Shown here: positions 9,783 to 24,535 of the stretch, piece after piece
Numbering within the stretch: the first letter of the stretch is position 1
Layout of the letters: each line of letters opens with the position of its first letter
Assembly: GCF_000406145.1 (NCBI RefSeq)
Contig: NZ_CM001976.1
Location: 1,742,551-1,774,550 of the forward strand
DNA: 32,000 nt
Source of the DNA: Dickeya dadantii NCPPB 898
Lineage (GTDB): Bacteria; Pseudomonadota; Gammaproteobacteria; Enterobacterales; Enterobacteriaceae
Reading direction: 5' to 3'
Program-made: the position numbers and the translations under genes
The notes under the pieces: generated by a model
Seen by the model: only the letters and a program-made list of their open reading frames with translations
Database searches by the model: none
Told to the model about the DNA's origin: nothing

Positions 9783-10553
9783 ATGTTTGACGTTTTAACT
9801 ATTCTGCACGACCACAGCATGCTGCTTCTGATGGGGCAATATCCGAACGGGCCGCTGGGCGGTGTGCTTTGTACCCTTTTAATCTCGCTGCTGGCTGTGG
9901 TGCTCTCCTTTCCGCTTGGCGTGTTGGTCGGGCTCGCGCGTCTGTCGCCGTGGCGCGGATTACGCTGGGCCGCCACCGCGTGGGTCTACACACTGCGTGG
10001 TATTCCGTTAATGATGGTGGTGTTTTGGACGTACTTCTGCGTGCCTCTGCTGATTGGGCAGAATATCAGTGGTTTTTCCACCATGCTTTGCACGCTGGTT
10101 ATCTATGAAAGCGCCTACATCGCCGAGATCGTCCGCGGCGGCATTCAGGCGTTGCCGCACGGCCAGTATGAAGCCTCGCGGGCACTGGGGATGAGTTACC
10201 TGAAAACCCTGCGATTGGTCGTTTTACCGCAGGCTTTGTTCAATTCTCTGCCAAGCCTGGTGAGCCAACTGGTGTCGATCATCAAAGACAGTACGCTTGG
10301 CTACGTCATCAACGTGCCGGAACTGACTTATGCCGCCAATCAGGTTAGCAATCAGCTGTTGACCAAACCATTTCAGGTGTTTGCGATTGTCGCCCTGAGT
10401 TATTACATCATCTGTTTTAGTCTGACATGGCTGGCGAATAAGCTTGAAAGCTATATTGCCAACAAACGGCTCAACGAGCGGCCATCACAGGGAGAAGGGC
10501 AGAACAGCCCCCTTTTTTTAGCTAACCGCAATCTGAATAAGGAAGCATCATGA
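9783..10553 (+). CDS. Amino-acid ABC transporter permease (second subunit)
   Basis: EAA loop [22 protein letters not shown] and multiple TM segments. Starts 5 nt after the previous stop. Its stop overlaps the ATPase start (ATGA at 10550-10553). Confidence 0.88.
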
Positions 10554-11284
10554 TCCCGATGATTTTGTTTAATCAGGTTAACAAATGGTATGGAGACTAC
10601 CATGCGCTGACTGACCTTAGCGCCGAAGTCAACATGGGGGAAGTGGTGGTGGTTTGCGGCCCATCCGGCTCAGGTAAGTCCACACTGATTCGTACGGTCA
10701 ACCGCCTTGAACCTATTGAGCAAGGGCAGATTCTGTTTGATGGCATGGATATTCACGGCAGCAGTACGCGATTGAATCAGCTACGCACACGGATTGGTTT
10801 TGTTTTCCAGAATTTCAATCTGTTCCCGCATGTATCGGTGATGGACAACATCATGATGTCTCCAGTGAAAGTGCTGGGGGTCAAGCGTTCCGAAGCACGT
10901 AAACATGCCGGTGAATTGCTGGAGCGCGTCGGATTGTCGCACAAAGCCAACGCCTATCCGGCACAGCTTTCAGGCGGCCAGCAACAGCGAGTCGCTATTG
11001 CTCGTGCGTTGGCGATGAAGCCGCCGGTCATGTTGTTTGATGAGCCCACATCGGCGCTGGATCCTGAAATGGTGGGCGAGGTGTTAAACGTGATGCGTTC
11101 GCTGGCACAGGAAGGCATGACCATGATGTGTGTTACGCATGAGATGCATTTTGCCCGCGATGTGGCCGATACCATCTGGTTTATGGATCAAGGGGAAATT
11201 CTCGAAAAGGCCAAGCCGGAACAGTTCTTTAGCGCACCGCAGCACCCTCGTGCACAGCGTTTCCTGAGTGATTTATTGAATTGA
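10550..11284 (+). CDS. Amino-acid ABC transporter ATP-binding protein (GlnQ/HisP-like)
   Basis: Walker [11 protein letters not shown]-loop, signature LSGGQQQR, Walker [14 protein letters not shown]-loop VTHEM. Confidence 0.94.
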
Positions 11285-11586: not shown

Positions 11587-12357
11587 CTAAAGGTGATACA
11601 TCATCCGGGATATCGCGGCTGCCAGTCCATTCGGATTATCGTAAGCCATCATGTGGCTACAGTCAGGCACTAACTCAACCAGACATCCGGCACTTATGTA
11701 TCGTTCAATGTCATCCGGAGAAGCGTTATCGGGCAGAATAACGCCTTTAGCGATCGGCAGACGGGACAATATTTCCAGCCAATTCTTTTGATTATCATCC
11801 AGAGTCGACTCAGCCCATTGATAAATAGCCAATGGAGAGCTGACCTGAAATGGACCAAGCCAGACATCATTTCCGCCTTCATTTTTAAGCTGCATCACCA
11901 GTTGCTTAAATCCTGTTGCGATAAATTCGCTTTCGCTCATCGCCGTGATGCTTTCAAGCAACGCAATACCATAATCATTCACACCGGGGGTACATAAAAT
12001 CAGTCGCTCTGGTTGCGGGGACATGGTTGTGGCCATTTTTAACGCGATAAATGCGCCGGCACTGTGGCCGAACAGGCTGATAGTGGATACCCCTGTACTG
12101 GTGATCCAGGTTTGCAACATGGTTGACAGACTGCCCGAATCATATCGCGCAGTCACAGGCTTATCACTGAACCCTGAACCAGGAAGATCTACCAGCCAGG
12201 AGCGAGTATCGGAATAGTGGGGGGATGTGACTACCGGCAGGTAGTCACTACTGGATGCACAACCGAGGCCATGAATGTAAACGAGAGGAGACGCGCCGGG
12301 ATGGCAGTCCAGCCAGCGCAGGAGATTACTCTTTTCATCAAAAGGCCACGTTTCCAT
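11587..12357 (-). CDS. Alpha/beta-fold hydrolase (cytoplasmic, 256 aa)
   Basis: HG oxyanion motif (VYIHGLG), nucleophile elbow GHSAGA, C-terminal His (DCSHMM). Start set at METWPF (ATG at 12357) because the longer listed ORF (to 12642) overlaps the upstream gene. Starts 19 nt after that gene's TAG. Confidence 0.8.
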   Translation of the reverse strand: METWPFDEKSNLLRWLDCHPGASPLVYIHGLGCASSSDYLPVVTSPHYSDTRSWLVDLPGSGFSDKPVTARYDSGSLSTMLQTWITSTGVSTISLFGHSAGAFIALKMATTMSPQPERLILCTPGVNDYGIALLESITAMSESEFIATGFKQLVMQLKNEGGNDVWLGPFQVSSPLAIYQWAESTLDDNQKNWLEILSRLPIAKGVILPDNASPDDIERYISAGCLVELVPDCSHMMAYDNPNGLAAAISRMMYHL

Positions 12358-12376
12358 AAATTTTCTTAAACGAATG

Positions 12377-13594
12377 CTATGGAGAGACTGAGACAGTGGA
12401 TGCCTGTTGATGCTCAGGTTTCCCGGCGGGCACTCCGGCGACAACCTGATTACCGATGGCATACACGGCGCACCCGACGGCGCCTGGGCGCTGCTGGCAG
12501 TTTTTAAGTGCCTGTTTAGCGGCTTCCCGCATAGTTCGCATACCGTATGCCGCTCCCCAGTTACCTTTCGAGTCAGTCGCAAACGCTTTCTCGTAACGCT
12601 GACTGACGTCGTAATATCTGAAATTCTCACGTCCGGCGGCATTCAGGTGGGCAGGATATGGCAGATGCGTTTCGGGAAGCGCGACAATTTCTTTGAACGG
12701 AAGATGCTGCTGCTCCAGAAACCCGGCTACTTGCTGCCACCAGAAACTTTCCGGTGCACTTTCTATAAACGTGTGCCCGTTTTCTTCGAAAGCAGGCATC
12801 AGAATGAATTCTGCGTTGCCTCCACCACGTTGATACGCATTCAACATCTCTCTGGCCATGTCAGGGGGAAAGAGATGGTCATTCTGGGTGTAAAGCCAGA
12901 GCGTAGGAATACGTGCCGTCCGTCCGTACAATTCGAACGCTTTTAATAGTCCGGCTTTATCACAAAATGATTTTCCATCAATCGCGCCTCTTCCTCCGTC
13001 AAAACTAATAATGGCCTGTACACCTGCCGGATTCACCGCGCTGGTCGCTATGACAGCAAACCCTCCCGCAGACATTCCGGTAAGGATTGCCTTGTCTTGC
13101 GATGCCCAGGGCTGGCGACGGATCGCAGCAAGCGCAGCCGTGATATTATTTTTATCTATTGTTCCTGCTCGCATGTGCCGAGGCTCATTGCAGGAACTCC
13201 CTTCACCCTCCGTCGTTCCGCTTGATTGCCCGTATCCCTGACGAAGAACGGAGACTACAGCGTAGCCGTGCCGTGCAAACGCAATAGCTGCAGACGAGAA
13301 CTGGGTTGGCGTTGCCATCATGCGGTTAAATACTGGGGAAGAGCTGCCATTTGTTATCAACACTACGGGCAGTCGACCGGTACTGACGGGACGGGTAACG
13401 AATGCATCCAGCGTTGCTGGTTGACCGTTATCCAGCGTCACTTGCAGTGAAAGGGGTTCCCTTATCAGGCCGGCAAGTTGTTGCCGACTGTCCGGTGAAG
13501 CGGCTGTCGGCGCGTCATTTGCCGAGGCTGTGAAAACAAGAAAAATGAAAGATAGCGATATTATTCTGAGACAAGCCATGAAGATCTGTTGCAT
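12377..13594 (-). CDS. Secreted dienelactone-hydrolase-family alpha/beta hydrolase with an extra C-terminal domain
   Basis: Signal peptide (MQQIFMACLRIISLSFIFLVFTASA|ND). GMSAGG nucleophile, QNDHLF Asp and ENGHTF His in DLH-like order. The C-terminal ~85 aa (...WGAAYGMRTMREAAKQALKNCQQRPGAVGCAVYAIGNQVV) is a separate Cys-containing module, possibly DUF4189-like (low certainty). Confidence 0.75.
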   Translation of the reverse strand: MQQIFMACLRIISLSFIFLVFTASANDAPTAASPDSRQQLAGLIREPLSLQVTLDNGQPATLDAFVTRPVSTGRLPVVLITNGSSSPVFNRMMATPTQFSSAAIAFARHGYAVVSVLRQGYGQSSGTTEGEGSSCNEPRHMRAGTIDKNNITAALAAIRRQPWASQDKAILTGMSAGGFAVIATSAVNPAGVQAIISFDGGRGAIDGKSFCDKAGLLKAFELYGRTARIPTLWLYTQNDHLFPPDMAREMLNAYQRGGGNAEFILMPAFEENGHTFIESAPESFWWQQVAGFLEQQHLPFKEIVALPETHLPYPAHLNAAGRENFRYYDVSQRYEKAFATDSKGNWGAAYGMRTMREAAKQALKNCQQRPGAVGCAVYAIGNQVVAGVPAGKPEHQQASTVSVSP

Positions 13595-13988
13595 CAGTGC
13601 TAATCCTTATTGGTGAATGTGTAGTGTACAAGTGTTCAAAAAACGGACTTACTATGGCTAACTACGGTTTCCGGTATGATGAAATCATCAGTTGATTAGG
13701 TACGTTTACATTGACGCCTGTTGATTATTCCCATATTCAGCGTTCAGATGGCTCAGTGTGTAAAGGCGTTTATTGAACGATGCCGCCATAATCGAAAAAT
13801 AGAGTATACCGTGCCGGAATGGGTGTCTGACGATGTATCATTTTATTATTGAATTAGGTTTTTACCTGAGCGTTCCACTTTTAATTGTATAAATGTGATC
13901 GTGTAAGTTTATTTATTTAAACGGTTATCCATAATTATTTACAAAATTAATCCGCATCAATAAACCAGATGTGCCTCTGGCTAAATTG

Positions 13989-14172
13989 TATACCCGTTAT
14001 ACTTCAAGTTGCAGGTGTGTTGGCTTGCGCTCCCTTACCCGAAGCACTTACCTGAGTAAGCTATTCTCTTGCCGCGTTACAACGGTCTTAATGAGCTTTG
14101 CCCTGTCGGACCAACGCACTGCGTTGTTCAACACTAATGTGTTGTCCTGCAACTCGAATTATTTAGGGTATA
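13989..14172. repeat. ERIC / IRU (enterobacterial repetitive intergenic consensus) element, long form with an internal insertion
   Basis: Ends match the ERIC consensus as I recall it: TATACCCGTTATACTTCAAGTTGCAGGTG... and ...CCTGCAACTCGAATTATTTAGGGTATA. A degenerate core is present (CACTTACCTGAGTAAGCT). About 60-70 extra bp sit between CTTGCCGC and CCTGCAAC. Confidence 0.7.
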
Positions 14173-14287
14173 GAATATCTATTGTTAGATGAGATTGTTG
14201 CTAATTATTTCCCTTGAAAAGAAATGCATTCAGGAAAAAGCCATCAGCGTAATCTCATCTCTAAAGAATTGAAAAAATGCCCATGGA

Positions 14288-14590
14288 TTACAGCGTTGGG
14301 GGCGATCTTTTGTCTCTATGGCGATGATGAGCTGGATTGCATTCCTGATTCGTTCCCGGCAGATAATATTTTCCATCAGAAGAGGGCGATGTTCCTCCGG
14401 GGCAACCGCTCATGCCGGGTTTTCCATCTTTACCGCCCGGAAGTCCAGCCCCTCCGGCCTGGCTAACAGAAACCAACAAAGCGTCTTTTGTTTCACCTCT
14501 ATTTTGGCTGACGACATCGTCGTGAGCTGCGTAGGTTATGGAAGAAAATCCTAAGGTAAACAGATAAATAAAAGCCAGCGCTTTGCTCAT
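14288..14590 (-). CDS. Hypothetical small secreted glycine-rich protein (100 aa)
   Basis: Good Shine-Dalgarno (AAGGTGAG) 5-6 nt before the ATG. Sec-type signal peptide MSKALAFIYLFTLGFSSITYA|AHDD. The mature part is Gly/Pro/Ser-rich (GGAGLPGGKDGKPGMSGCPGGTSPS) with 2 Cys and a basic His-rich tail. No family recognised. Confidence 0.45.
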   Translation of the reverse strand: MSKALAFIYLFTLGFSSITYAAHDDVVSQNRGETKDALLVSVSQAGGAGLPGGKDGKPGMSGCPGGTSPSSDGKYYLPGTNQECNPAHHRHRDKRSPPTL

Positions 14591-14927
14591 ATCTCACCTT
14601 TTACGTTTTTGTACGTTTTTGACTTCATTAACAGACAGTTATCGGAACAGACCATTATTGGGCTTGGCTACAAGTCCAACAATCTTCATATCGCTTCACT
14701 GACAAGGATTAAGGTATCACCATCTTTCATATCATTTTACTACCATGTATATGAATATAAGATGAATCGCTGCCGTGTTGCTGGAAAGCATCTGAACATA
14801 AAGCCGGATAAATATCATTACATTCATTATTTCTAAGTGTTATCTTTATTGACAAATAACTTACAAGAGCGAGCTCTTTAACTGTATTTATGGAAGTCTG
14901 GACTACGCTTTTGGTATTTATGTTGTA

Positions 14928-14956
14928 GGGAATGATAAAATAAAATTATCATTCCC
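14928..14956. repeat. Perfect inverted repeat / hairpin (11-bp stem, 7-nt loop)
   Basis: GGGAATGATAA (14928-14938), AATAAAA, TTATCATTCCC (14946-14956). No flanking T-run on either strand. Confidence 0.9.
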
Positions 14957-15015
14957 GGTAAGAAAGTCGGCATATTGGATTAATGAAATATCCATTTAAC
15001 TGACCCTGACCCGAA

Positions 15016-15164
15016 TGATCTTACCCAGCAATAATGGACGCGTGACTAAGTGAGTACACTCTCAATCAGAGGTGATTACTCATGACAAAACCAGCATCAA
15101 CCAATAAAAAGCCCCGTAAACAGCATTCGCCGGAATTCCGCGAAGAAGCCCTGAAATTGGCAGA
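15016..15164 (+). mobile_element. IS3-like left end: terminal inverted repeat plus the first 27 codons of orfA, truncated by insertion of another IS
   Basis: TGATCTTACCCAGCAATAATGGACGCG..AAGTGAGTA.ACTCTCA.TCAGAGGTGA closely follows the E. coli IS3 left end as I recall it. The ATG at 15082 encodes MTKPASTNKKPRKQHSPEFREEALKLA (IS3 InsE: MTKTVSTSKKPRKQHSPEFRSEALKLA). Similarity stops at about 15164. Confidence 0.8.
15082..15164 (+). pseudogene. Truncated IS3-family orfA (HTH transposase subunit) remnant
   Basis: Only 27 homologous codons remain. The reading frame then runs into foreign sequence and stops at 15199-15201. Confidence 0.75.
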
Positions 15165-15830
15165 TGTAAGCACACCTATTTTAGTTCCACGCACTTTTTG
15201 AGGTTTCCGGGTTTCCAGCCATCAATCTGTATTCTTCCAGTGTCAGGTTATTCAGGGATTCATGAGGACGCTCGCAGTTATATTCGTTCAGCCAGCGCTC
15301 CTTGATTTCCCTGACTTCGTTCAGTGTTCTGAATAGATAAAAATCCAGTATTTCTGTTCGGTACGTCCGGTTGAAGCGTTCGATAAACGCATTCTGTGTC
15401 GGCTTGCCCGGTTTAATAAATTCCAGTGTTACACCATGCTCTTCCGCCCACTGCGCCAGCGTCAGAGAGACGAGTTTGGGACCGTTATCCATGCGCAGTT
15501 TCAACGGATATCCGCGATTTGCCACTATTCGCTCCAACACACGAACGACACGCAGTGCCGGGATATTCAGGTCAATCTCAATCGCCAGCACTTCACGATT
15601 AAAATCATCCACCACGTTGAACGTGCGAAAACGTCTGCCGCACACCAGCGCATCATGCATAAAATCGACTGATCAGCTCTGGTTCAGTTGTTCCGGCGTT
15701 TCCAGTGGGGCTGGATTGCGCACTGGCAAGCGTTGCTTTCCCTTACGACGAAAATTCAGTTTTAACAGGCAATAAATTCGATGAATGCGTTTATGGTTCC
15801 ATGTCAGAAGGCGTGCGTATTGCCTGATGG
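15165..15830 (-). mobile_element. 3' part of a second IS3-family element inserted into the IS3-like orfA; its 5' part is deleted
   Basis: The boundary reads TG... at 15165 on the + strand (the ...CA 3' terminus of an IS3-family element on the - strand). It carries the orfB remnant below. Protein similarity fades near 15830, where an unrelated AT-rich tract begins. Confidence 0.7.
15181..15830 (-). pseudogene. IS3-family DDE (rve) transposase orfB, 5'-truncated and interrupted by an in-frame stop
   Basis: ORF 15181..15660 encodes the integrase core (DDFNREVLAIEID, RMDNGPKL, KPTQNAFIERFNRTYR, YNCERPHESL). Upstream in the same frame I read ...[49 protein letters not shown]. The TGA at 15673-15675 sits where family members have Trp (TGG). 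No orfA or frameshift region is present. Confidence 0.8.
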
Positions 15831-15849
15831 TCAACTCTTCTCCAGAGGT

Positions 15850-16168
15850 GCTTGCTCAAAATCCGATTTTTTCCACAAAGCTTTAATTTATTTTAAATCA
15901 AGGTGATATTGTTTTTAAAATTGCATTTTAAAATTTGATAAAAATCAAAAAAATAAAAAAATTTTAATGTATAAACAAGTGGTTCTAAGTAAAAAAATTC
16001 TTGTTATCGATTGCATCGAAGCTTGATTTCTGATTATTTCGATTTTAGATCCGATAAAATAGTTTCTTTTCTTTATTATTTTTTGTCAATTTATTTACAA
16101 TTTAGATTGTTATGTTCCGTTGTATTCTATTGTACTTACTTGTCGGGTTTGTGGCTGTTATGAATTAA
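15850..16168 (+). promoter_or_regulatory. Extremely AT-rich upstream region of the PKS-NRPS operon (promoter, likely nucleoid-protein target)
   Basis: About 320 bp of A/T tracts directly 5' of the first biosynthetic gene. Hand count of line 15901-15960 gives 8 G+C out of 60. Contains two abutting palindromes (15913-15933, 15934-15949). I could not place a -35/-10 pair confidently. Confidence 0.5.
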
Positions 16169-16189
16169 GTGAATATAAGTCAGGATATT

Positions 16190-19100
16190 ATGAATCAAGG
16201 AAATTATGAGCACTCTATCGCAGTTATTGGATTGTCTGGCTATTTCCCGCAATCGCGAAATGTAGAAGAGTTCTGGCAGTGGCTTATCAGAGGAAAAGAA
16301 TGCATCAGCCATTTTACTGATGAGGAATTAATAGCGGATGGTGAGGATCCGCAATTGCTCAATAACCCTGACTATGTACGAGCTAAAGGGACTATCACAG
16401 AACCAGAATATTTTGATGCGAGTTTTTTTGGTATATCACCAGCTGAAGCAGCATTAATCGACCCGCAACATCGACTTTTTCTCGAATGTTGTTGGCATGC
16501 CATCGAGGATTCAGGATGTAATTTAGATGCGGCTGGGGCTGTAGGTGTATTTGGCTCCGCCGGGATGAGCACGTACTTGTTACATCATCTTACGCAAAAT
16601 CCCAGTTTGTTGCGGGAATATGATTCCTATCAGCTTATGCTTGGCAATGATAAAGATTACATTGCTACGCGTGTCTCTTTTAAATTGAATTTGTCAGGTC
16701 CCAGTATTTCAGTACAGACAGCCTGTTCCAGTTCACTGGTTGCGGTACACCTTGCCTGTCAAAGTTTACTCAATGGTGAGTGTGATATGGCGCTGGCTGG
16801 TGGTGCTTCGGTGAGCTTCCCGCACAGCAGAGGCTACCTCTACCAGAAGGGCATGATCTTCTCACCTGATGGTCATTGTCGCCCGTTTGATAAGCATGCT
16901 GCCGGAACGGTTGAAGGCAATGGGGCTGGTGTTGTTCTGCTAAAGCGATTGGAAGACGCGATAGCGGATAATGATCGCATTTGTGCGGTAATTCGAGGCA
17001 GCGCAATAAATAACGATGGTGCAGAAAAGATTGGTTATACGGCACCGAGTGTTGTCAGGCAGACTGAAGTTATTAGTGAGGCATTAGATATTGCTGGTGT
17101 AGATGCTGGTCATATTTCATATGTAGAAACACACGGCACCGGGACTCCACTCGGAGATCCCATTGAAATAGCTGCATTGACTAATGCCTTTCGACAACAT
17201 ACTGATAAGATCAGATATTGTGCGCTGGGATCGCTGAAAAGCAATTTGGGTCATCTTAATTCGGCAGCAGGCGTTGCCGGGTTAATTAAGGTGGTATTAT
17301 CCCTTAAAAATAAATACATTCCAGCAAGTCTTAATTATTCGACTCCAAATCCGAATATTGATTTTGATAATAGCCCTTTCTACGTCAATTCATGCAGTAC
17401 ACCCTGGACGAGTAGTAAAGATACGCGTTGTGCCGCAGTGAGTTCTTTTGGCATTGGTGGCACTAATGCGCATATAGTGTTGTCCGAGGCGCCATCATCG
17501 ATTAATACAATACCCTCTCTACGTCAGTCACACATTCTAACCATCTCGGCAAAAACAAAAAATTCCGTTGTGCGTTACTGCAATGATCTTCAACATTTTC
17601 TGCAAAAAAACAGAGATCTTGCTTTGGAAGATATTGCTTTCACTATGCAAACAGGGCGACAGGAATTTGAATATCGTCGGGCAATTGTCGGCAATACTAT
17701 CGATGAAGTTATTACGAAACTGGCGGATACCGTTGATAATGTGGGTAGTATTGAACATAAGAACCGAATGGTCTGGATGTTCAGCGGTCAGGGGTCTCAG
17801 CATATTGGCATGGCACGTGAGGTTTATTCGTCAGAGCCTTTTTTCCACAATGAGTTTGATCGTTGCTGTGCGCTGCTGGAACCGCATTTGGCTGGTAAGG
17901 ACATCAGGCAGGCTATTTTTTCCTCGGCGGGGAATACAGAGCTCGCCTCCGCGGAACTAAAGAATACTGCCATAGCACAACCTGCATTGTTTGTTGTTGA
18001 GTATTGCCTGGCTCGTTTGTTGCTGTCATGGGGAATAGAGCCTGCTGCCATGCTAGGTCACAGCATTGGTGAATATGTGGCGGCTACTCTGGCGGGGGTT
18101 ATGTCGTTGCCGGATGCACTGATGTTAGTGGTGCATCGCGGGCGTTTGATGCAAGGGTTACCTACCGGAAGCATGCTGTCTGTTGCTTTGGCGGAAGAGG
18201 CGTTGCAGCAGCGTCTTGAGGAATTCCCAAGTCTGGACATTGCAGCGGTTAATAGTCAGAGCAATTGTGTGATATCTGGGCCGCTGGCGGATGTAGAGAC
18301 ACTTCGTGTGGTGCTCAAAGAAAGCGGTATTGCCTCAACATTACTCCACACTTCACATGCGTTCCACTCCGCGATGATGGAGCCAATTTTGGCGCCATTT
18401 ACTGAATTGTTACGCAATATTCGTCTTTCTCCACCAACTAGACCCTTTCTGTCAAATGTTACTGGCAGTTGGATTACTCAGGAGCAAGCCTGTTCTCCGG
18501 CGTACTGGGCCTTACATCTGCGACAGCCGGTACGCTTCGCAGCGATGATTGGATTACTGGAAGACGAAGGGTTTACACATTTTGTCGAGGTCGGACCAGG
18601 TCAGGTGCTGACATCATTGTCCCGTCAGATTCTCAGTACAGCAACGGTAATGCCACTGCTGTCATCTGTCCGTGCTCAGCAGAGCAATGTCTCTTACCTG
18701 ATGGAGACAATTGGTCGCCTGTGGTCTGTGGGTTTTCACGTGGACTGGCGTTCGGTTTACCACCATGAGGTACGGTGCAAAGTAGCACTTCCCTTGTATG
18801 CCTTTGACAGGCAGCGTTACAGCTTGAGTAAAGCCGTTGCCCCTTGCGCACTGACTACGACGCAACAATCTGTTATGCAACCCGATGTGAGCCAAAGGCA
18901 ACATCATGTCAGAAATGATTATGTGGAACCTGAGAATGAATTGGAGTGGATCCTTGCCGAAATGTGGCAAGCACTGCTTCAGATTTCTCCTGTCGGCCGA
19001 AATGATGATTTTTTCGAACTTGGCGGCAATTCTCTTATTGGGATTCAACTACTGGAACGGATTCGGGCGACCTTCATGGTTGAGGTGTCAGTAAATGACC

Positions 19101-19228
19101 TTTTTGCTGCTCCGACAGTTAGCAATTTGGCTGCCCAGATGCTGGATAAGCTTAGTACATTAACCGAAGAAGAGGCGAATGAAGTGCAGAAGACTTTAGC
19201 AGCCTGGTTAGATAGAGCGGATAAGTAA
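16190..19228 (+). CDS. Type I polyketide synthase module, KS-AT-carrier protein, no reductive domains
   Basis: KS: TACSSSLV (Cys codon 16724-16726), ETHGTGTPLGD, KSNLGHL. AT: FSGQGSQ, GHSIGE (Ser 18062-18064), HAFHS (18356-18370). Carrier: FFELGGNSL (Ser 19031-19033). ATG 16190 has AGGA at 16182-16185; the listed GTG 16169 has no Shine-Dalgarno. Confidence 0.93.
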   Translation: MNQGNYEHSIAVIGLSGYFPQSRNVEEFWQWLIRGKECISHFTDEELIADGEDPQLLNNPDYVRAKGTITEPEYFDASFFGISPAEAALIDPQHRLFLECCWHAIEDSGCNLDAAGAVGVFGSAGMSTYLLHHLTQNPSLLREYDSYQLMLGNDKDYIATRVSFKLNLSGPSISVQTACSSSLVAVHLACQSLLNGECDMALAGGASVSFPHSRGYLYQKGMIFSPDGHCRPFDKHAAGTVEGNGAGVVLLKRLEDAIADNDRICAVIRGSAINNDGAEKIGYTAPSVVRQTEVISEALDIAGVDAGHISYVETHGTGTPLGDPIEIAALTNAFRQHTDKIRYCALGSLKSNLGHLNSAAGVAGLIKVVLSLKNKYIPASLNYSTPNPNIDFDNSPFYVNSCSTPWTSSKDTRCAAVSSFGIGGTNAHIVLSEAPSSINTIPSLRQSHILTISAKTKNSVVRYCNDLQHFLQKNRDLALEDIAFTMQTGRQEFEYRRAIVGNTIDEVITKLADTVDNVGSIEHKNRMVWMFSGQGSQHIGMAREVYSSEPFFHNEFDRCCALLEPHLAGKDIRQAIFSSAGNTELASAELKNTAIAQPALFVVEYCLARLLLSWGIEPAAMLGHSIGEYVAATLAGVMSLPDALMLVVHRGRLMQGLPTGSMLSVALAEEALQQRLEEFPSLDIAAVNSQSNCVISGPLADVETLRVVLKESGIASTLLHTSHAFHSAMMEPILAPFTELLRNIRLSPPTRPFLSNVTGSWITQEQACSPAYWALHLRQPVRFAAMIGLLEDEGFTHFVEVGPGQVLTSLSRQILSTATVMPLLSSVRAQQSNVSYLMETIGRLWSVGFHVDWRSVYHHEVRCKVALPLYAFDRQRYSLSKAVAPCALTTTQQSVMQPDVSQRQHHVRNDYVEPENELEWILAEMWQALLQISPVGRNDDFFELGGNSLIGIQLLERIRATFMVEVSVNDLFAAPTVSNLAAQMLDKLSTLTEEEANEVQKTLAAWLDRADK
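16214..17490 (+). other. Ketosynthase (KS) domain
   Basis: From IAVIGLSGYFP to GGTNAHIVLSEAP. The Cys-His-His catalytic residues are all present, so it should be condensation-competent and is not a KS-Q loader. Confidence 0.88.
17768..18630 (+). other. Acyltransferase (AT) domain, malonyl-CoA-type motifs
   Basis: GQGSQ...GHSIGE...HAFH...VEVGPGQVL. By established AT motif rules, HAFH with GHSxGE indicates malonyl-CoA (methylmalonyl-specific ATs carry YASH). Confidence 0.8.
18940..19150 (+). other. Carrier (thiolation) domain of the PKS
   Basis: LAEMWQALLQISPVGRNDDFFELGGNSLIGIQLLERI. GGNSL is closer to the NRPS PCP form (GGxSL) than to the usual PKS ACP form (GxDSL). Confidence 0.8.
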
Positions 19229-22200
19229 TGGATAATACTAAAGGTAACGCAAAATCTCAGCTTTTAGCAACGCTACGTAGCCAGACTTCGTCGGGAAAGT
19301 CGGCGCATCCGGCGATAAAGCAGTTGGCAAGTGTTGTGCCGGGCAATGGGGATATTATCAGGGTGGACAATCGCCCTTTTTATCCTGTGTCGTTTGCGCA
19401 AAAGCGGATGTACCTCTTGCATCAGTTGGATCCTAAATCTACCGCCTATAACCTGCCGCTTGCACTTTATATAGAAGGAAAAATCGATATTGAGCGTTTT
19501 ACTGTTGCAGTAAAGCAGCTTACAGAGCGCCACGAATGCTTGCGTAGCGGGATTTACCTGGTTGAGCAGGAGATCATGCAATCCATCGAACAGAATGCTG
19601 CGCTTGCTATTCACTACACGGACGTACGTGACGACGATATTCCAGCACTGATGAAAGCGTTCAGCCAGCCTTTTGATCTTGCCAAGCCACCTTTGGCTCG
19701 TATTGCGCTAGCAACAGTGGAAAGAGAGCGATATTTATTATTGCTAGATATGCACCACATCATTGCCGATGGTATTTCTCAACAAATCATTTTGCGTGAT
19801 TTGATGTTCTTATATAACGGAATGACGCTTTCACAACTGCCACTACGCTATCGGGATTATGCTGTTTGGCAGGAACAATGGCTTTTATCTGCGGCGGCGC
19901 AAAAACAGCAGCATTTTTGGCTGGAAATGTACGCAACAGACGTGCCAGTGCTGGATTTAGCAACTGATTTCCCGCGCCCGGATATTCTGACGTCGGTGGG
20001 TGCGCACTATGAATTTGTTTTTACGGCAAATGAAACTGATTCGATGAAGTCTCTGGCGAGACAATTGAATGTCACCACTTATACCTTGTTCCTCGGTGTA
20101 TTCTCCCTGCTATTGGCTAAAGATTCCGGGCAAGATGATATTGTTGTAGGTTCGCCTGTTGCCGGACGGCGCCAGATTGCATTGCAGGAACTGGTAGGGA
20201 TGTTCGTTAATACGATTGCATTACGCTGCAAGCCTGAAGCAACAAAACGCGTTGCTGACTATATCAAAGAGTTGGGTATTACTGTTTCCTCTGCACTTGA
20301 AGCACAAGACTATCCATTCGAAGCATTAGTCGAGAAAACTCGCGCTACCCGCAGTATTAATCGTAATCCGCTTTTTGATGTCATGTTTTCGCTTAGCAAT
20401 ATGAAGAAAACGACATCACAATTTAAGGAACTGAGCATTAGCCCGTATCCGTTTCAACGCAATGTGGCCAATTTTGACCTTGAGTTGTATATGACGGAAG
20501 AGAATCAGTGCATTGAGTTCCGACTGGAATATAACACTCAACTGTTTATCGAAGAAACCATACAACGTATGGCTAGCCACTTCCGGTACCTCGCGCGCCA
20601 GTTAGTCGATAAACCAGAGCAGGCTATTTCTGCACTGAAACTTTTGGATGCAGCAGAACAGGCAGAGACGCTGGCAAGGCATCGCGGTCCGGCGGTAATT
20701 GCAGAAGATTGTGTATTTACACAGGTATTTGAACAGCAAGTGGAGCAAACACCGAATGCTCTTGCGGCCATTTGTGATAAACGTCAGCTTAGTTACGCAG
20801 AATTAAATAGCTGGGCCAATAGTGTTGCTCGTGGCCTGATTGGGAAAGAATTTCCCAGGGAAACACTTATTGCACTCTGGCTGGACCGGGAGCTTGAGTT
20901 TCTGGCGGCCATGATAGGGGTTTTTAAGGCGTCATACAGTTATATGCCAGTGGATCCGGCGTTGCCGCATGCACGTATTCGCACGTTGTTGGCCGAGAGT
21001 AAAAGTCGTTTAATTATTACTGAAAAGCAATATCTGTCGATTGCGCGTGAAATCGCTGGTCCGAATGTAGAAATAGTTTTGATTGAAACCCTTCTGACAA
21101 GAGGGGAGCTCTCAACCAATCCCGACATTCCGGTAGTGCCAGAGCAGCTTGCTTACATAATTTTCACCTCAGGTTCGACGGGTAAACCGAAAGGTGCAAT
21201 GGTCGAACATCGGGGCATGCTCAATCACCTGCGGGCGAAAATCGATGTTTTGCAGCTCACTCATCATGATCGAGTGGCTGAAACTGCAACGCAAAGTTTC
21301 GACGTATCCGTCTGGCAGTTTCTTTCTGCACTGATGACTGGCGGTGTGACCGTTATTTTTAATGGTGTCAGTGCATGGCAGCCTAGTCTGGTGCTGGAAG
21401 GCATTTGTAAACATCGTGTCACGGTATTTGAAACGGTGCCCAGCCATCTGATTGTGTTGCTGGATGAAATCGAGGATTCTCTATCGGCTACAGGTGCGCT
21501 GCCGTTGCGCTGGCTGATGCTGAATGGTGAACAACTGTTGTCTGAACTTTGTCGCCGCTGGTTCGTTTGTTACCCGGATATTCCGCTAATCAATGCGTAT
21601 GGTCCGACCGAGTGTTCTGATGATGTTACTCACCATCTAATAACAAAGTCTTCCCCCTTGGAACGCTCTGCCATTCCCATCGGTGACACGGTAAGAGGAA
21701 TGTGGCTCTATGTCCTTGATGAATATTTGCAACTGGTTCCCCGCGGCTGTGTTGGTGAACTCTATATCGGCGGAATAGGTGTCGGCCGCGGATATTTAGA
21801 TGATCCAGAGAAGACGGCGGCTGCTTTTTTGCCCGATGTTTTCGTGGTGGACCCAACAAAACGTATGTACAAAACCGGTGATCTGGTACGTGAGCTTGCT
21901 GATGGCTCGCTCGAATACTTAGGACGTCGCGACCATCAGGTTAAAATTAATGGCATGCGTGTGGAACTGAGTGAAATTGAACATGCGTTACTGGCGACAG
22001 GGCGGGTGCGTGAGGCTGTTGTGGTCGCAGGACAATGGGGCCATTTACCGCTCAAGCAGCTCTGTGCTTATGTGGTATTGAAAGCCGGCAATGAACTGGC
22101 TCTTTTGCAGAACGAGATTGAGTCAATCCTGCCAGGTTATATGACCCCTGTTTTTTGGGTATGCCTGTCATCACTACCTTTGTTGGTTAATGGTAAAGTT

Positions 22201-23820
22201 GATCGTAAAGCGCTTCCGTATCCTAAAGCAGATGAGTCCACCGCTATCCCTTTAATTGTACCTGTCACCGAAGAGCAGCGTCTGATGGCTAAGTTCTGGG
22301 CCGACGTGCTGGATCTGGATGCGGCAGGTATCGGTTTACAGCATGAATTTTTCAAACTTGGTGGAACCTCGTTGAAAGCGATGCGGCTGGTTTCTCGGAT
22401 CAAAAGGGAAACCGGGGTTGGAATGCCTTTCTCGGCGATTTTTGCCAACTCTATTTTGCAGGGATTTACTGAGTTATATCAGCAGGCCAGGCAATCCAGT
22501 CAGGCTCCACAGCCGCTGAATTCTGCACGGCATTATACGTTTCGTATCCCTGCGTTGCCCGAACATCAGCGTATTTATCGTATGGAAGGCCAGATGCCAA
22601 GGGAAGCCGTATTCAACATGCCGTATCGCTTATTAGTGGAAGGCGCGTTGGATGCGCAGAAGGTTGAAGCAGCCTTCCGGGCTGTCTGCAGGCGTCACTG
22701 GATGATGACGGCGAACATCGTGTCAGATAATAATGGTGAGTTAAGCTTGTTTCCCAATTCTGCGGCTGATATTGCTTTCTCTTACTCGGATAGCACTGAA
22801 GAAGATATTGAGTATCGGTGGCATCAGTTTGTCCGTCCCTTTGCCATTGCTGATGAGCCCCTCTTCAGGATGCAGTTACTGACGGTGAACCCACAGCGGC
22901 ATTATTTTTTCTTCGATAACCACACTATAGCTGCGGATTTTACGTCAAAAGCGCTAATTTTACGCGAGTTTGTCAGTTTATATCTCGGGCATTCCTTGCC
23001 GCAGCCTGGGATGGATTATCCAACCTATGTGCAACAACGTTTGGCGCGGGCAAACAGTGCGATAGCACTGGCGCAAAGGAACGCATGGCAACGCATGTTT
23101 AGCCGGGGGGCATTGCGTTTACAGAGTACTGATGCGCAAACACTGACCGAGGTCAGTGCAGAAAAAGCGAAGCATCTCACGCTCAGGCTGGATGAGACGC
23201 GACTGGGACAAATCAGTGCGCTGTCTAAAATCAGCGGCGTTAGCGAACACAATATTTGCCAGGCAGCTTTTTCCCTTGCCTTGGCCAGTCAGTTCAACCA
23301 ACGTGAGTTCTTTTTGCTTTCACTGGTGACCGATCGTGACCAGCCGGAATATGACAACATTGTCGGGCTGGTATTTGATTCGCTCCCTGTGTGGCAACAG
23401 ATCGATGTAGCCCAGTCAGTAACGCAACTTTTAGTTCAAACACAATATCATTCACGCCAATCCTATGAGAAACGAGAATATCCGGCCATTCTGCTTTATG
23501 AAGAACGATCAGAGCAGGATGGTAATTGGAGTAATGGTTATTTTGATACGACGATGGTCTGGGTTGAACATGATGCATTTAATTTTTCTCAGGCAGGTTT
23601 TAATGTCAAAGATATACCGAATGATAACATCATGGGGCGTTTCGATCTTCGTTTGGAGGCTTATCGAGAGCAATCCAGCCTGACGCTCATTCTTGAGTAT
23701 CGGGAGAGAATTTTTTATCCAGAGACTGCTGAGAAAATATTTTCTTCTATTGATTCAGCGCTCATTTTTATGGTGAATAACCCTGACGCAAAAATTGCAG
23801 CCTGGGGGCGGTATGTATAA
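19228..23820 (+). CDS. Non-ribosomal peptide synthetase, C-A-T plus a terminal condensation-like domain (1530 aa)
   Basis: The ATG overlaps the PKS stop (TAATG). C: SFAQKRMY, MHHIIADG (19753-19773). A: LSYAELN, LAYIIFTSGSTGKPKG, FDVSVWQ, NAYGPTE, GELYIGGIGVGRGY, YKTGD, GRRDHQVKINGMRVEL, NGKVDRKAL. T: FFKLGGTSL (Ser 22369-22371). The C-terminal ~430 aa is C-like. Confidence 0.95.
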   Translation: MDNTKGNAKSQLLATLRSQTSSGKSAHPAIKQLASVVPGNGDIIRVDNRPFYPVSFAQKRMYLLHQLDPKSTAYNLPLALYIEGKIDIERFTVAVKQLTERHECLRSGIYLVEQEIMQSIEQNAALAIHYTDVRDDDIPALMKAFSQPFDLAKPPLARIALATVERERYLLLLDMHHIIADGISQQIILRDLMFLYNGMTLSQLPLRYRDYAVWQEQWLLSAAAQKQQHFWLEMYATDVPVLDLATDFPRPDILTSVGAHYEFVFTANETDSMKSLARQLNVTTYTLFLGVFSLLLAKDSGQDDIVVGSPVAGRRQIALQELVGMFVNTIALRCKPEATKRVADYIKELGITVSSALEAQDYPFEALVEKTRATRSINRNPLFDVMFSLSNMKKTTSQFKELSISPYPFQRNVANFDLELYMTEENQCIEFRLEYNTQLFIEETIQRMASHFRYLARQLVDKPEQAISALKLLDAAEQAETLARHRGPAVIAEDCVFTQVFEQQVEQTPNALAAICDKRQLSYAELNSWANSVARGLIGKEFPRETLIALWLDRELEFLAAMIGVFKASYSYMPVDPALPHARIRTLLAESKSRLIITEKQYLSIAREIAGPNVEIVLIETLLTRGELSTNPDIPVVPEQLAYIIFTSGSTGKPKGAMVEHRGMLNHLRAKIDVLQLTHHDRVAETATQSFDVSVWQFLSALMTGGVTVIFNGVSAWQPSLVLEGICKHRVTVFETVPSHLIVLLDEIEDSLSATGALPLRWLMLNGEQLLSELCRRWFVCYPDIPLINAYGPTECSDDVTHHLITKSSPLERSAIPIGDTVRGMWLYVLDEYLQLVPRGCVGELYIGGIGVGRGYLDDPEKTAAAFLPDVFVVDPTKRMYKTGDLVRELADGSLEYLGRRDHQVKINGMRVELSEIEHALLATGRVREAVVVAGQWGHLPLKQLCAYVVLKAGNELALLQNEIESILPGYMTPVFWVCLSSLPLLVNGKVDRKALPYPKADESTAIPLIVPVTEEQRLMAKFWADVLDLDAAGIGLQHEFFKLGGTSLKAMRLVSRIKRETGVGMPFSAIFANSILQGFTELYQQARQSSQAPQPLNSARHYTFRIPALPEHQRIYRMEGQMPREAVFNMPYRLLVEGALDAQKVEAAFRAVCRRHWMMTANIVSDNNGELSLFPNSAADIAFSYSDSTEEDIEYRWHQFVRPFAIADEPLFRMQLLTVNPQRHYFFFDNHTIAADFTSKALILREFVSLYLGHSLPQPGMDYPTYVQQRLARANSAIALAQRNAWQRMFSRGALRLQSTDAQTLTEVSAEKAKHLTLRLDETRLGQISALSKISGVSEHNICQAAFSLALASQFNQREFFLLSLVTDRDQPEYDNIVGLVFDSLPVWQQIDVAQSVTQLLVQTQYHSRQSYEKREYPAILLYEERSEQDGNWSNGYFDTTMVWVEHDAFNFSQAGFNVKDIPNDNIMGRFDLRLEAYREQSSLTLILEYRERIFYPETAEKIFSSIDSALIFMVNNPDAKIAAWGRYV
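19378..20640 (+). other. Condensation (C) domain, canonical HHxxxDG
   Basis: C1 SFAQKRMYLL, C2 RHECLRSG, C3 MHHIIADGIS, C5 VGMFVNTIALR. Confidence 0.85.
20713..22225 (+). other. Adenylation (A) domain; hand-extracted specificity code about D-V-W-E-M-N-A-D-D-K
   Basis: Core motifs A1-A10 are all present. The code was read by eye-aligning to GrsA positions 235/236/239/278/299/301/322/330/331/517. Confidence 0.85.
22270..22485 (+). other. Thiolation (PCP) domain
   Basis: EEQRLMAKFWADVL...FFKLGGTSLKAMRLVSRI. Confidence 0.85.
22531..23817 (+). other. Terminal condensation-like domain with a degenerate active-site motif (NHTIAAD instead of HHxxxDG)
   Basis: The motif order is C-like but each motif is diverged: LPEHQRIYRM (C1), RRHWMMTANI (C2), FFFDNHTIAADFTS at 22918-22938 (C3), VGLVFDSLPVWQ (C5). 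Confidence 0.7.
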
Positions 23821-24535
23821 GATGAAAATATTTTGTCTACCATATGCTGGTGGATCAGCCAGTATATATCGCAAATGGCAGTCTACTATTCATCCATTAA
23901 TTGAGTGGGTTCCTCTTGAACTAGCCGGACGCGGTAGTCGCTTAAATGAAGCTCCTTATGAAATATTTCAGGATTGTATAAATGAGGTATACGATAAGAT
24001 TATCCAGCATGGCTTGAATATGCCATATGCGTTACTGGGACACAGTATGGGAGCAAGTATCGCTTTTGAAGTAGCACAAAAGCTTGTCCGCCACGCTCAG
24101 CGTCTGCCGATGCATTTATTTATTTCTGGACGCCGTGCCCCCCAATCTGTGCGTCCGGTAAAAAAGATGCACTTACTTTCTGAGGATGAGTTTATTGCTG
24201 AATTACGTTTGCTGGGGGGAACTGCCGACGAACTCTTTGCCGACTGTGATTTATTAGCATTGTTTTTGCCAATCATTCGTGCAGACTATCGGATGCTCGC
24301 AACCTATTTATTTCAGGCACCACCTCGGCCTATTGATGTGGCATTTACCATTTTAAATGGCAAATCGGATGACTTGTTTCCAGAAGAGATAACAGGCTGG
24401 CAGGCTTTAAGTATGAGAAAATGCGAGTATCGTTTTTTTGACGGTGGGCACTTTTTTATTGATCAACATTATAAAGAAATAAGCCACTATCTGAATTCAG
24501 TCATGCTGTCCACAGGGAGTGCTGGGGAAAAATGA
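23813..24535 (+). CDS. Type II (editing-type) thioesterase
   Basis: FCLPYAGGSASIY, nucleophile GHSMGA, and a C-terminal GGHFF motif. About 240 aa. ATG 23813 overlaps the NRPS stop (ATGTATAA) and has GGGGG upstream. ATG 23822 is an alternative start. Confidence 0.9.
   Translation: MYKMKIFCLPYAGGSASIYRKWQSTIHPLIEWVPLELAGRGSRLNEAPYEIFQDCINEVYDKIIQHGLNMPYALLGHSMGASIAFEVAQKLVRHAQRLPMHLFISGRRAPQSVRPVKKMHLLSEDEFIAELRLLGGTADELFADCDLLALFLPIIRADYRMLATYLFQAPPRPIDVAFTILNGKSDDLFPEEITGWQALSMRKCEYRFFDGGHFFIDQHYKEISHYLNSVMLSTGSAGEK

Follow-up and report, generated by a model that had tools for sequence, protein, structure and literature searches.

A condensation-fold domain without the second motif histidine, probably a helper domain rather than a chain-releasing enzyme, ends a synthetase of an uncharacterised antibiotic-type cluster in Dickeya dadantii

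The operon and its terminal condensation-fold domain

The 32,000-nucleotide stretch of the Dickeya dadantii NCPPB 898 genome analyzed here (contig NZ_CM001976.1, positions 1,742,551 to 1,774,550; hereafter the window) carries five genes on the plus strand, encoding a type I polyketide synthase (PKS), a nonribosomal peptide synthetase (NRPS-2), a type II thioesterase (TEII), a fused ATP-binding cassette (ABC) exporter, and a further synthetase (NRPS-3) that extends past the end of the window (Table 1). The five genes form one translationally coupled operon: PKS and NRPS-2 overlap in an ATGA, NRPS-2 and TEII by 8 nt, TEII and the ABC gene by 4 nt, and the ABC gene and NRPS-3 by 8 nt, with the ATG of NRPS-3 at 28274. 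Our subject is the domain at the C-terminal end of NRPS-2, designated C′ here, which has a condensation (C) fold, has lost the second histidine (His2) of the HHxxxDG motif, and is nevertheless maintained by purifying selection. We interpret C′ as probably a helper domain of an uncharacterized antibiotic-type cluster and not as a chain-releasing enzyme.

Pfam finds only four domains in NRPS-2, namely C, adenylation (A), carrier (T), and a second C, and neither a thioesterase (TE) nor a reductase (R) domain, in agreement with a preliminary description of this DNA made from the letters alone. The extra C-type domain at the end of the protein, also proposed there, is equally clear: searched on its own, the C-terminal 440 aa match PF00668 with 163 bits and cover nearly the full profile (positions 9-442 of 456). 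C′ thus belongs to the condensation-domain superfamily with its two-lobe, chloramphenicol-acetyltransferase-like fold. The AlphaFold check suggested in the same description was run as AlphaFold2 (AF2) and returned a C fold (predicted local distance difference test, pLDDT, 77.5; Foldseek template-modeling score, TM, 0.80 and E = 1.6e-30 to TycC6, 2JGP), but the motif loop was modeled with a pLDDT below 50. The gene behind NRPS-2 encodes a free-standing enzyme that has the length of a TEII (240 aa) and both of its motifs, GxSxG and, toward the C-terminus, GGHFF.

Table 1. Features of the operon and of its left edge in the window
Feature	Position	Strand	Basis or remark
Truncated IS3-type transposase, rve core	15181..15660	-	Pfam rve_3, rve; left edge of the island
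Type I PKS, KS-AT-T, 1019 aa	16169..19228	+	Pfam; no KR, DH or ER
KS Cys in TACSSS	16718-16735		Motif position in PKS
AT motif HAFH	18356-18367		Motif position in PKS
PKS carrier Ser in LGGNS	19019-19033
NRPS-2, 1530 aa, C-A-T-C′	19228..23820	+	Pfam Condensation, AMP-binding, PP-binding, second Condensation
NRPS-2 first C, canonical HHIIADG	19753-19773
NRPS-2 A domain	20728-22197		Specificity residues DVWEMNADDK
NRPS-2 carrier Ser in LGGTS	22357-22371
C′, terminal condensation-fold domain, residues ~1112-1524 of NRPS-2	22561..23799	+	Pfam
HTIAADF, C′ counterpart of HHxxxDG	22921..22941	+	Ungapped alignments
TEII, 240 aa	23813..24535	+	Pfam Thioesterase, 147 bits
TEII motif GHSMG	24038-24052
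TEII motif GGHFF	24443-24457
Fused full-length ABC exporter, two TMD-NBD halves, 1249 aa	24532..28281	+	Pfam, NCBIfam
NRPS-3, C-A-T-C..., extends past window end	28274..32000	+	Pfam
NRPS-3 first C (C1)	28301-29656
HHIAVDL of NRPS-3 C1	28682-28702
NRPS-3 second C motif HHIISDG	31862-31882

Motif register and class of C′

The motif region of C′, YFFFDNHTIAADFTSKA, lies at 22903-22953 and does contain the string NHTIAAD (22918-22938) to which the preliminary description had drawn attention. Its register, however, differs from the one proposed there. We checked the register with HMMER against 2JGP (TycC6), 8XJZ, and 8Z0Q (HtmB2-CT), with phmmer against 388 NRPS proteins, and with hmmalign over 1048 C-family domains, and in every alignment FFDNHTIAADF-SK pairs without gaps with FDMHHIISDG-S(K). 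In this register, N1231 stands opposite the Met that precedes the motif, H1232 corresponds to the first histidine (His1), and T1233 occupies the position of the catalytic His2, while D1237 is the canonical Asp, in place, and F1238 stands where Gly is expected. The earlier reading had the first His replaced by Asn, the catalytic second His kept, and the Asp displaced by one position; all three statements fall with the new register. Since all alignments are ungapped, the earlier register would need a deletion plus an insertion, and none of the alignments supports it. As judged from these alignments, C′ is without the catalytic His2, and HHxxxDG has become H[T/S/A]xxxD[F/A] in its family.

Among the 1048 sampled C-family domains, 1034 have His2 (859 of the 1048 with HHxxxDG) and 14 do not, eight of these 14 being the C′ clade itself. 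Core motifs C2, C3, C5, C6, and C7 of C′ are all altered in the alignment to TycC6, which agrees with the divergence of the other C motifs reported before.

The closest relatives of C′ are nonetheless of the LCL subtype. Its best sequence match in the PDB is TycC6 (2JGP), an LCL domain (E = 1e-31, ~25% identity) that is also its best solved relative by fold (TM 0.80), and the best matches outside its own family among the 388 NRPS proteins all carry an LCL motif of the FDMHHIISDG type. The separation from these relatives is wide: family members score 187-990 bits, the best outsider 141 bits. In an exhaustive search of 1.84 billion representative proteins, where summed scores favor giant NRPSs so strongly that the listing says nothing about subtype, only the C′ family exceeds ~25% identity, and C′ is likewise 25% identical to the canonical C domains encoded in the same cluster. 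By sequence comparison, C′ forms a small branch that derives from the LCL type and stands sharply apart from it.

Several other class assignments were tried and rejected. A canonical LCL, DCL, or starter catalyst is ruled out by HTIAADF, which has no His2. A divergent epimerization (E) domain does not fit either, as His2 is absent, the downstream C domain is of the LCL type, and the post-motif region is LCL-like, with TDRDQPEYDNIVGLVFDS in C′ resembling TGRSHADLEPIVGMFVNT in TycC6; E-domain structures are absent from the PDB matches of C′. For a glycopeptide X domain, the match to 4TX2 reaches only 26.7 bits and no TE follows C′ in cis, and no P450 genes were seen in the window or in the syntenic loci, the downstream end of the cluster excluded. 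An interface (I) domain was set aside, as C′ is C-terminal after a T domain with nothing behind it and no hydroxylase gene was seen. Membership among VibH-like condensing domains appears unlikely from the missing His2 and from the lack of amine-supply genes in the parts of the cluster seen. A fungal-type CT domain has the motif the other way round, as C′ keeps His1 and loses His2. A cyclization (Cy) domain carries DxxxxD where C′ has HxxxxD; moreover, the match to PchE (7EMY) is 22.9 bits and no acceptor module stands behind C′. Finally, a partnership with a protein that starts with an A domain was discarded, since the sole such protein seen, at locus L011, pairs with the terminal C domain of NRPS-3.

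Conservation and the place of C′ in the assembly line

A full-length protein search returned NRPS-2 orthologues of 1505-1531 aa, every one of which ends in C′, with nothing behind it in all eight. They are found in a second Gram-negative copy (locus L005, 79% identity), Paenibacillus sophorae (65%), a Bacilli metagenome-assembled genome (MAG; 62%), P. tengchongensis (61%), the Bacillus cereus group (56%, next to mutS-mutL), and two distant metagenomic clusters (43% and 41%). Within C′, the eight are 29-77% identical, and the pattern FDNH[TSA][IL][AS]AD is invariant throughout; because it is kept across such divergent orthologues, the motif is more than a chance deviation. The His2 position itself holds T, S, or A, and this variation speaks against the residue there being catalytic. 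The operon order PKS / NRPS-2 / TEII / (ABC) / NRPS-3 is preserved across the syntenic loci (Bacillus cereus group, P. sophorae, the Bacilli MAG, the second Gram-negative copy, and the two distant metagenomic clusters), in all of which the PKS is the first operon gene, and the TEII orthologues are also 240 aa long with the same 8-nt overlap. A metagenome scan with the C′ alignment recovered only the L011-type contig once more (as L014), a contig scan with the end of the window gave only unrelated Streptomyces and MAG NRPSs, and the 2580- and 3622-aa orthologues of NRPS-3 were not among the returns of a homologue search with that protein.

C′ is the least conserved of the four NRPS-2 domains, with a mean pairwise identity of 47% versus 55% for the first C domain (NRPS-2 C1), 63% for A, and 56% for T. 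Even so, 61 of its residues are invariant, including D1230, N1231, H1232, A1236, D1237, S1240, and K1241. The ratio of nonsynonymous to synonymous substitution rates (dN/dS) between the window and its 79% orthologue is 0.152 for C′, compared with 0.118 for NRPS-2 C1, 0.113 for A, and 0.185 for T. C′ is under purifying selection like its catalytic neighbors and is not decaying. These values bear directly on the idea that C′ is the relic of a lost downstream module, kept only for the folding or stability of NRPS-2. The loss of the catalytic His, the divergence of several core motifs, and the low rank of C′ in identity (47% against 55-63%) are what such a relic would be expected to show, and the degenerate A-T domains of the glidonin synthetase are retained for stability only (PMC10587159). 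A relic would not, however, be expected to have a dN/dS of 0.15, comparable to that of the catalytic domains, nor a modified motif and 61 residues that are invariant between Firmicutes and Proteobacteria copies, nor to remain full-length in 8/8 orthologues while the ABC gene and neighboring modules are present in some copies and missing from others. We regard this explanation as very improbable.

The cluster sits on an island (window 13600-32000) with a GC content of 43-49%, versus 51-59% in the left flank, where nac, amino-acid ABC transporter genes, and other genes of ordinary enterobacterial type are found. The 79% copy at L005 adjoins genes of the type found in integrative and conjugative elements (ParE-like, DUF2857, TraR-type zinc finger), and the operon proteins are 56-65% identical to their Bacillus cereus group and Paenibacillus counterparts. 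From these comparisons, the whole PKS-NRPS cluster looks like one transferred horizontally across phyla. The best tblastn hit to plasmids had 25.7% identity, which shows that known plasmids do not carry the cluster, and a blastn search of E. coli with the left flank gave no match. A product described for the PKS/NRPS-2/NRPS-3 cluster was not found in our literature search. Left of the operon, the ORF finder lists two alpha/beta-hydrolase open reading frames (ORFs) on the minus strand, 11587-12642 and 12377-13594, with 266 nt in common; a later start codon is probable for the downstream one. The N-terminus of the upstream one, of 405 aa, resembles a signal peptide, and this ORF matches dienelactone hydrolases and S15 peptidases. 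What looks like the end of a second cluster precedes the PKS in the Bacilli MAG (L015, 1-6525), with a KS-containing protein, a MatE exporter, a second type II thioesterase, and a DrrA-type ABC transporter.

The later synthetase of the operon opens, as the preliminary description noted, with a C domain that carries HHIAVDL. It does belong to the same operon, but it is not adjacent to NRPS-2, as the TEII and ABC genes lie between them. This domain, NRPS-3 C1, scores 155 bits against TycC6 versus ~80 against the DCL-type domains of SrfA-C and TycB1, with no match to starter-C structures; on these scores it reads as an LCL-like, elongation-type C domain, which would need a carrier-bound donor upstream. 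Its motif, HHxxxDLWS (L[GV]FHHxxxDLWS), is orthologous in every cluster, even with a different module behind it: at L011 the Ser module is missing after C1, and C1 is 33-37% identical to the other C1s compared with 24-26% to their C2s. The conservation of the non-standard HHxxxDL-W-S suggests a special donor substrate or partner.

Behind C1, the composition of NRPS-3 varies by whole modules. Its first A domain has the Ser-like code DVWHVSLVDK, and full orthologues read C-A-T-C-A-T-C (~2580 aa) or have one module more (3622 aa), the lengths across L001, L003, L005, L011, and L013 being 2577-2608 or 3622-3629 aa, as expected of whole-module insertions and deletions. The modules are Ser plus DVFY-type in the window and L005, Ser plus DLK-type plus DVFY-type in the 3622-aa Bacillus and Paenibacillus proteins, and DLK-type plus DVFY-type at L011. 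The last domain of NRPS-3 is always a canonical C (HHIVSDG), which at L011 is followed by a protein starting A-KR-T (NRPS-4, keto-acid-type); as the split partner of NRPS-3, this protein is not available to C′. Two further observations concern L011. Just upstream of its PKS lies the tail of another NRPS (1-1806), in which a carrier is fused to a beta-lactamase-fold domain with weak PDB matches to an alkaline D-peptidase and to SurE (6KSU), a thioesterase of the penicillin-binding-protein (PBP) type. PBP-type releasing enzymes usually stand alone; the fused domain may be a releasing domain of this type in cis. In addition, a 37-aa ORF at 10448-10561, MKNLKQIFNRIFYSDK, resembles the ABC exporter N-terminus, MNLLQDLFRKVFYQE, and the exporter gene has been deleted from this copy with only a stub left.

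The A domain of NRPS-2 offers a hint at the intermediate that C′ would meet. With extraction positions validated on SrfAA module 1 (DAKDLGVVDK), the code in the orthologues is DVWE[M/V/I]NADDK, and the pocket is acidic (E278, D330, D331), which suggests a cationic substrate, a diamino acid such as 2,4-diaminobutyrate (Dab) or ornithine (Orn). With 350 bits, the third A domain of PvdL, presumably Dab-activating, is the best single-domain PDB match; codes for comparison are DVGEIGSIDK, presumably for Orn, and ones like DIWELTADDK, presumably for Dab.

Taken together, these features allow a path through the assembly line to be proposed. The KS-AT-T module encoded by the first gene would make a malonate-derived (beta-keto)acyl thioester, the canonical NRPS-2 C1 would join this acyl group to the probably cationic amino acid on the NRPS-2 carrier, and the chain would then pass to the LCL-type NRPS-3 C1 for extension by Ser and further residues, in the order PKS, NRPS-2, NRPS-3, and A-KR-T protein. 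The PKS/NRPS-2 step reads as a normal docked junction, since the PKS continues as a tail beyond its carrier and NRPS-2 opens with ~50 conserved aa (AKSQLL...); tails comparable to these are seen neither at the C′ end nor at the start of NRPS-3. There are only ~15 aa ahead of the KS, which fits the PKS as the first module. The NRPS-2 carrier is the only visible carrier without a canonical condensing domain downstream in cis, and NRPS-3 C1 is the only visible elongation C domain without a donor; with a PKS that comes first and has no N-terminal docking region, this makes the collinear order the simplest one.

In the collinear order, C′ fills the place that the E domain takes in a T-E‖C junction, yet it is neither E-like nor catalytically equipped. 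This leads us to favor, tentatively, a reading of C′ as a non-condensing auxiliary or hand-off domain that would neither release the chain nor form a bond. We envision C′ as a scaffold that would present or gate the carrier-bound intermediate, either for hand-off to NRPS-3 or by holding a partner that acts in trans, in the manner of X and interface domains; the co-translated TEII would be one candidate for such a partner. A non-catalytic docking or recruitment domain was among the options of the preliminary description and is the one that the evidence favors, although we infer, rather than observe, the scaffold role and the order of the line. What can be said of the function with more assurance is that it is conserved and constrained and probably not condensation.

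A number of points weigh against this reading. The AF2 model has its pLDDT below 50 precisely at the motif loop (domain residues 144-146), and a rearrangement of this loop may place H1232 in the active site of C′. The catalytic role of His2 in C domains is itself described as debated (PMC13638107), so that its loss is not proof of lost chemistry. The order of the line may also change with an initiating NRPS, a terminal TE, or tailoring genes farther downstream, and the NRPS tail with its T and beta-lactamase-fold domains does stand upstream of the PKS at L011. Lastly, we see no docking helices where C′ ends or where NRPS-3 begins.

The first alternative is that C′ terminates the chain. The order would then be non-collinear, with the PKS and NRPS-2 acting last, and release would occur by intramolecular cyclization, be it macrolactonization or lactamization as proposed for RapP/FkbP, a cyclization like that of fungal CT domains, or self-lactamization of a diamino-acid side chain. 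It is true that T-C′ forms the end of NRPS-2, with neither a TE nor an R domain in the protein, that a PKS followed by C-A-T-C is the architecture of RapP/FkbP, and that the acidic A pocket, together with the match to the presumably Dab-activating PvdL domain, suggests a side-chain amine that could serve as the internal nucleophile. But His2, retained in characterized releasing C domains, is the very residue missing in C′; NRPS-3 C1 would be left without a visible donor carrier; the KS lacks an N-terminal docking region through which a separate protein could deliver a chain; and the PKS heads a translationally coupled operon. We consider a cyclizing release unlikely, though worth keeping in view.

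The second alternative, that C′ is an active condensation catalyst working in trans, either on a free amine or hydroxyl or by acylating the side chain of the diamino acid to give a branch, seems to us less plausible still. Release to a free amine in the manner of VibH was the option that the preliminary description put first, and it has lost its main support, as the second His on which it relied is the residue missing in the alignments. The terminal position of C′ after a carrier and the strong purifying selection would suit a catalyst, and a diamino acid, with which the acidic A pocket is compatible, would offer two acylable amines. The VibH variant H126A reportedly retains activity, and His2 is reported not to be strictly essential in some C domains, its role being the subject of the debate mentioned above. 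On the other hand, the His2 position is not only vacated but variable (T, S, or A), and in glidonin biosynthesis C13 is needed for the product, with a substrate-positioning role assigned to H9721 (PMC10587159). Furthermore, the visible parts of the cluster contain neither polyamine nor amine-supply genes, and the sole protein seen to start with an A domain, NRPS-4 of L011, is already paired with the terminal C domain of NRPS-3.

A bolder form of the auxiliary reading, which we put forward only as an outside possibility, is that C′ represents a new, His2-less class found in a T-C′‖C arrangement, which either chemically processes the beta-ketoacyl-(diamino acid) intermediate on the carrier ahead of hand-off or acts as an obligatory adaptor replacing docking domains, in an orphan cluster moved between Firmicutes and Enterobacterales. 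For the processing, one possibility by analogy would be a Cy-like cyclodehydration, in which the side-chain amine would attack a carbonyl to give a cyclic amidine or a lactam, because HxxxxD in C′ mirrors DxxxxD in Cy domains.

Whichever of these applies, C-fold domains that no longer form peptide bonds (X, interface, PfaA C2, CMxgE) are emerging as control points of assembly lines and as markers for genome mining. C′ lies at a junction between synthetases, a type of site that is often recombined in assembly-line engineering, and knowing its role there (adaptor, gate, or hidden catalyst) would guide how such proteins are cut and joined. It would also help to predict the product of an orphan PKS-NRPS cluster that occurs on an enterobacterial island as well as in Paenibacillus and the Bacillus cereus group.

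Comparison with known systems

The preliminary description held that two C domains meeting with no carrier between them make a non-standard junction. This holds only in part: the E domain belongs to the C superfamily, and T-E‖C is an ordinary junction at GrsA/GrsB, TycA/TycB, and SrfAA/SrfAB. What is unusual is to find a C-like, His2-less domain in this place. The likeness to the E-domain junctions lies in the C-superfamily domain of about 430 aa after the last carrier and in a next synthetase that starts with C (T-X‖C, with X standing for any such domain). The differences are that C′ is LCL-like and without the His2 used by E domains, that the downstream C domain is LCL rather than DCL, and that two genes lie between.

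In RapP and FkbP (rapamycin, FK506/FK520), the second C domain has been proposed to cyclize and release the chain. NRPS-2 shares with them the C-A-T-C order and the feeding by a PKS carrier. Here, by contrast, the operon continues with a multi-module NRPS whose first C domain is of the elongation type. The fungal CT motif, SHxxxD, keeps the second His. HtmB2-CT, the 'special condensation domain' of the hangtaimycin synthetase (8Z0Q), is also a C-terminal C fold with a degenerate motif, PWGIFDG, and ranks with the best matches to C′ in both sequence (64 bits) and fold (TM 0.77-0.80). It is, however, only ~19% identical and not of the C′ clade, and it has lost both His residues where C′ has lost His2 alone. 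A function for HtmB2-CT was not found in our literature search on HtmB2 and PDB 8Z0Q, which was limited to available papers.

VibH, the terminal C domain of rhabdopeptide synthetases, and glidonin C13 resemble C′ in being C domains at or near the end of an NRPS that work without a requirement for a functional TE. They differ from it in keeping HHxxxDG, in contrast to the T, S, or A at the His2 position of C′. In the glidonin case, inactivation of C13 abolishes the product, and the second His, probed with H9721A, was assigned a role in substrate positioning as in typical C domains (PMC10587159).

Functional parallels to the auxiliary role that we favor for C′ come from C folds that have lost the catalytic His. 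X domains of glycopeptide NRPSs stand before a TE and work with P450s; I domains of siderophore NRPSs are found in front of an A domain and partner a beta-hydroxylase. Both kinds are scaffolds recruiting trans-acting enzymes to a carrier-bound substrate (PMC13638107). With the X (4TX2/4TX3) and I domains, C′ shares the C fold and the loss of the catalytic His; no oxygenase genes are seen near it, and beside the low score to 4TX2, its fold match to the X domain is no better than that to an ordinary C domain. CMxgE is a C-like domain with HPxxxD that is needed for its pathway (PMC13638107). The fungal PKS-NRPS PfaA has two C domains in tandem, C1 with NHALYD and C2 with HPAIYD, and deletion of C2 abolishes the product while point mutants of the motif stay active (PMC11731387). 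PfaA thus resembles the system described here in that a pair of C-fold domains, one of which lacks His2, serves a single junction downstream of a PKS carrier; the PfaA domain without His2 is required all the same. In PfaA, however, both domains lie in cis ahead of the A domain and the His2-less one is the second, whereas C′ is the first of the two and resides on a separate protein.

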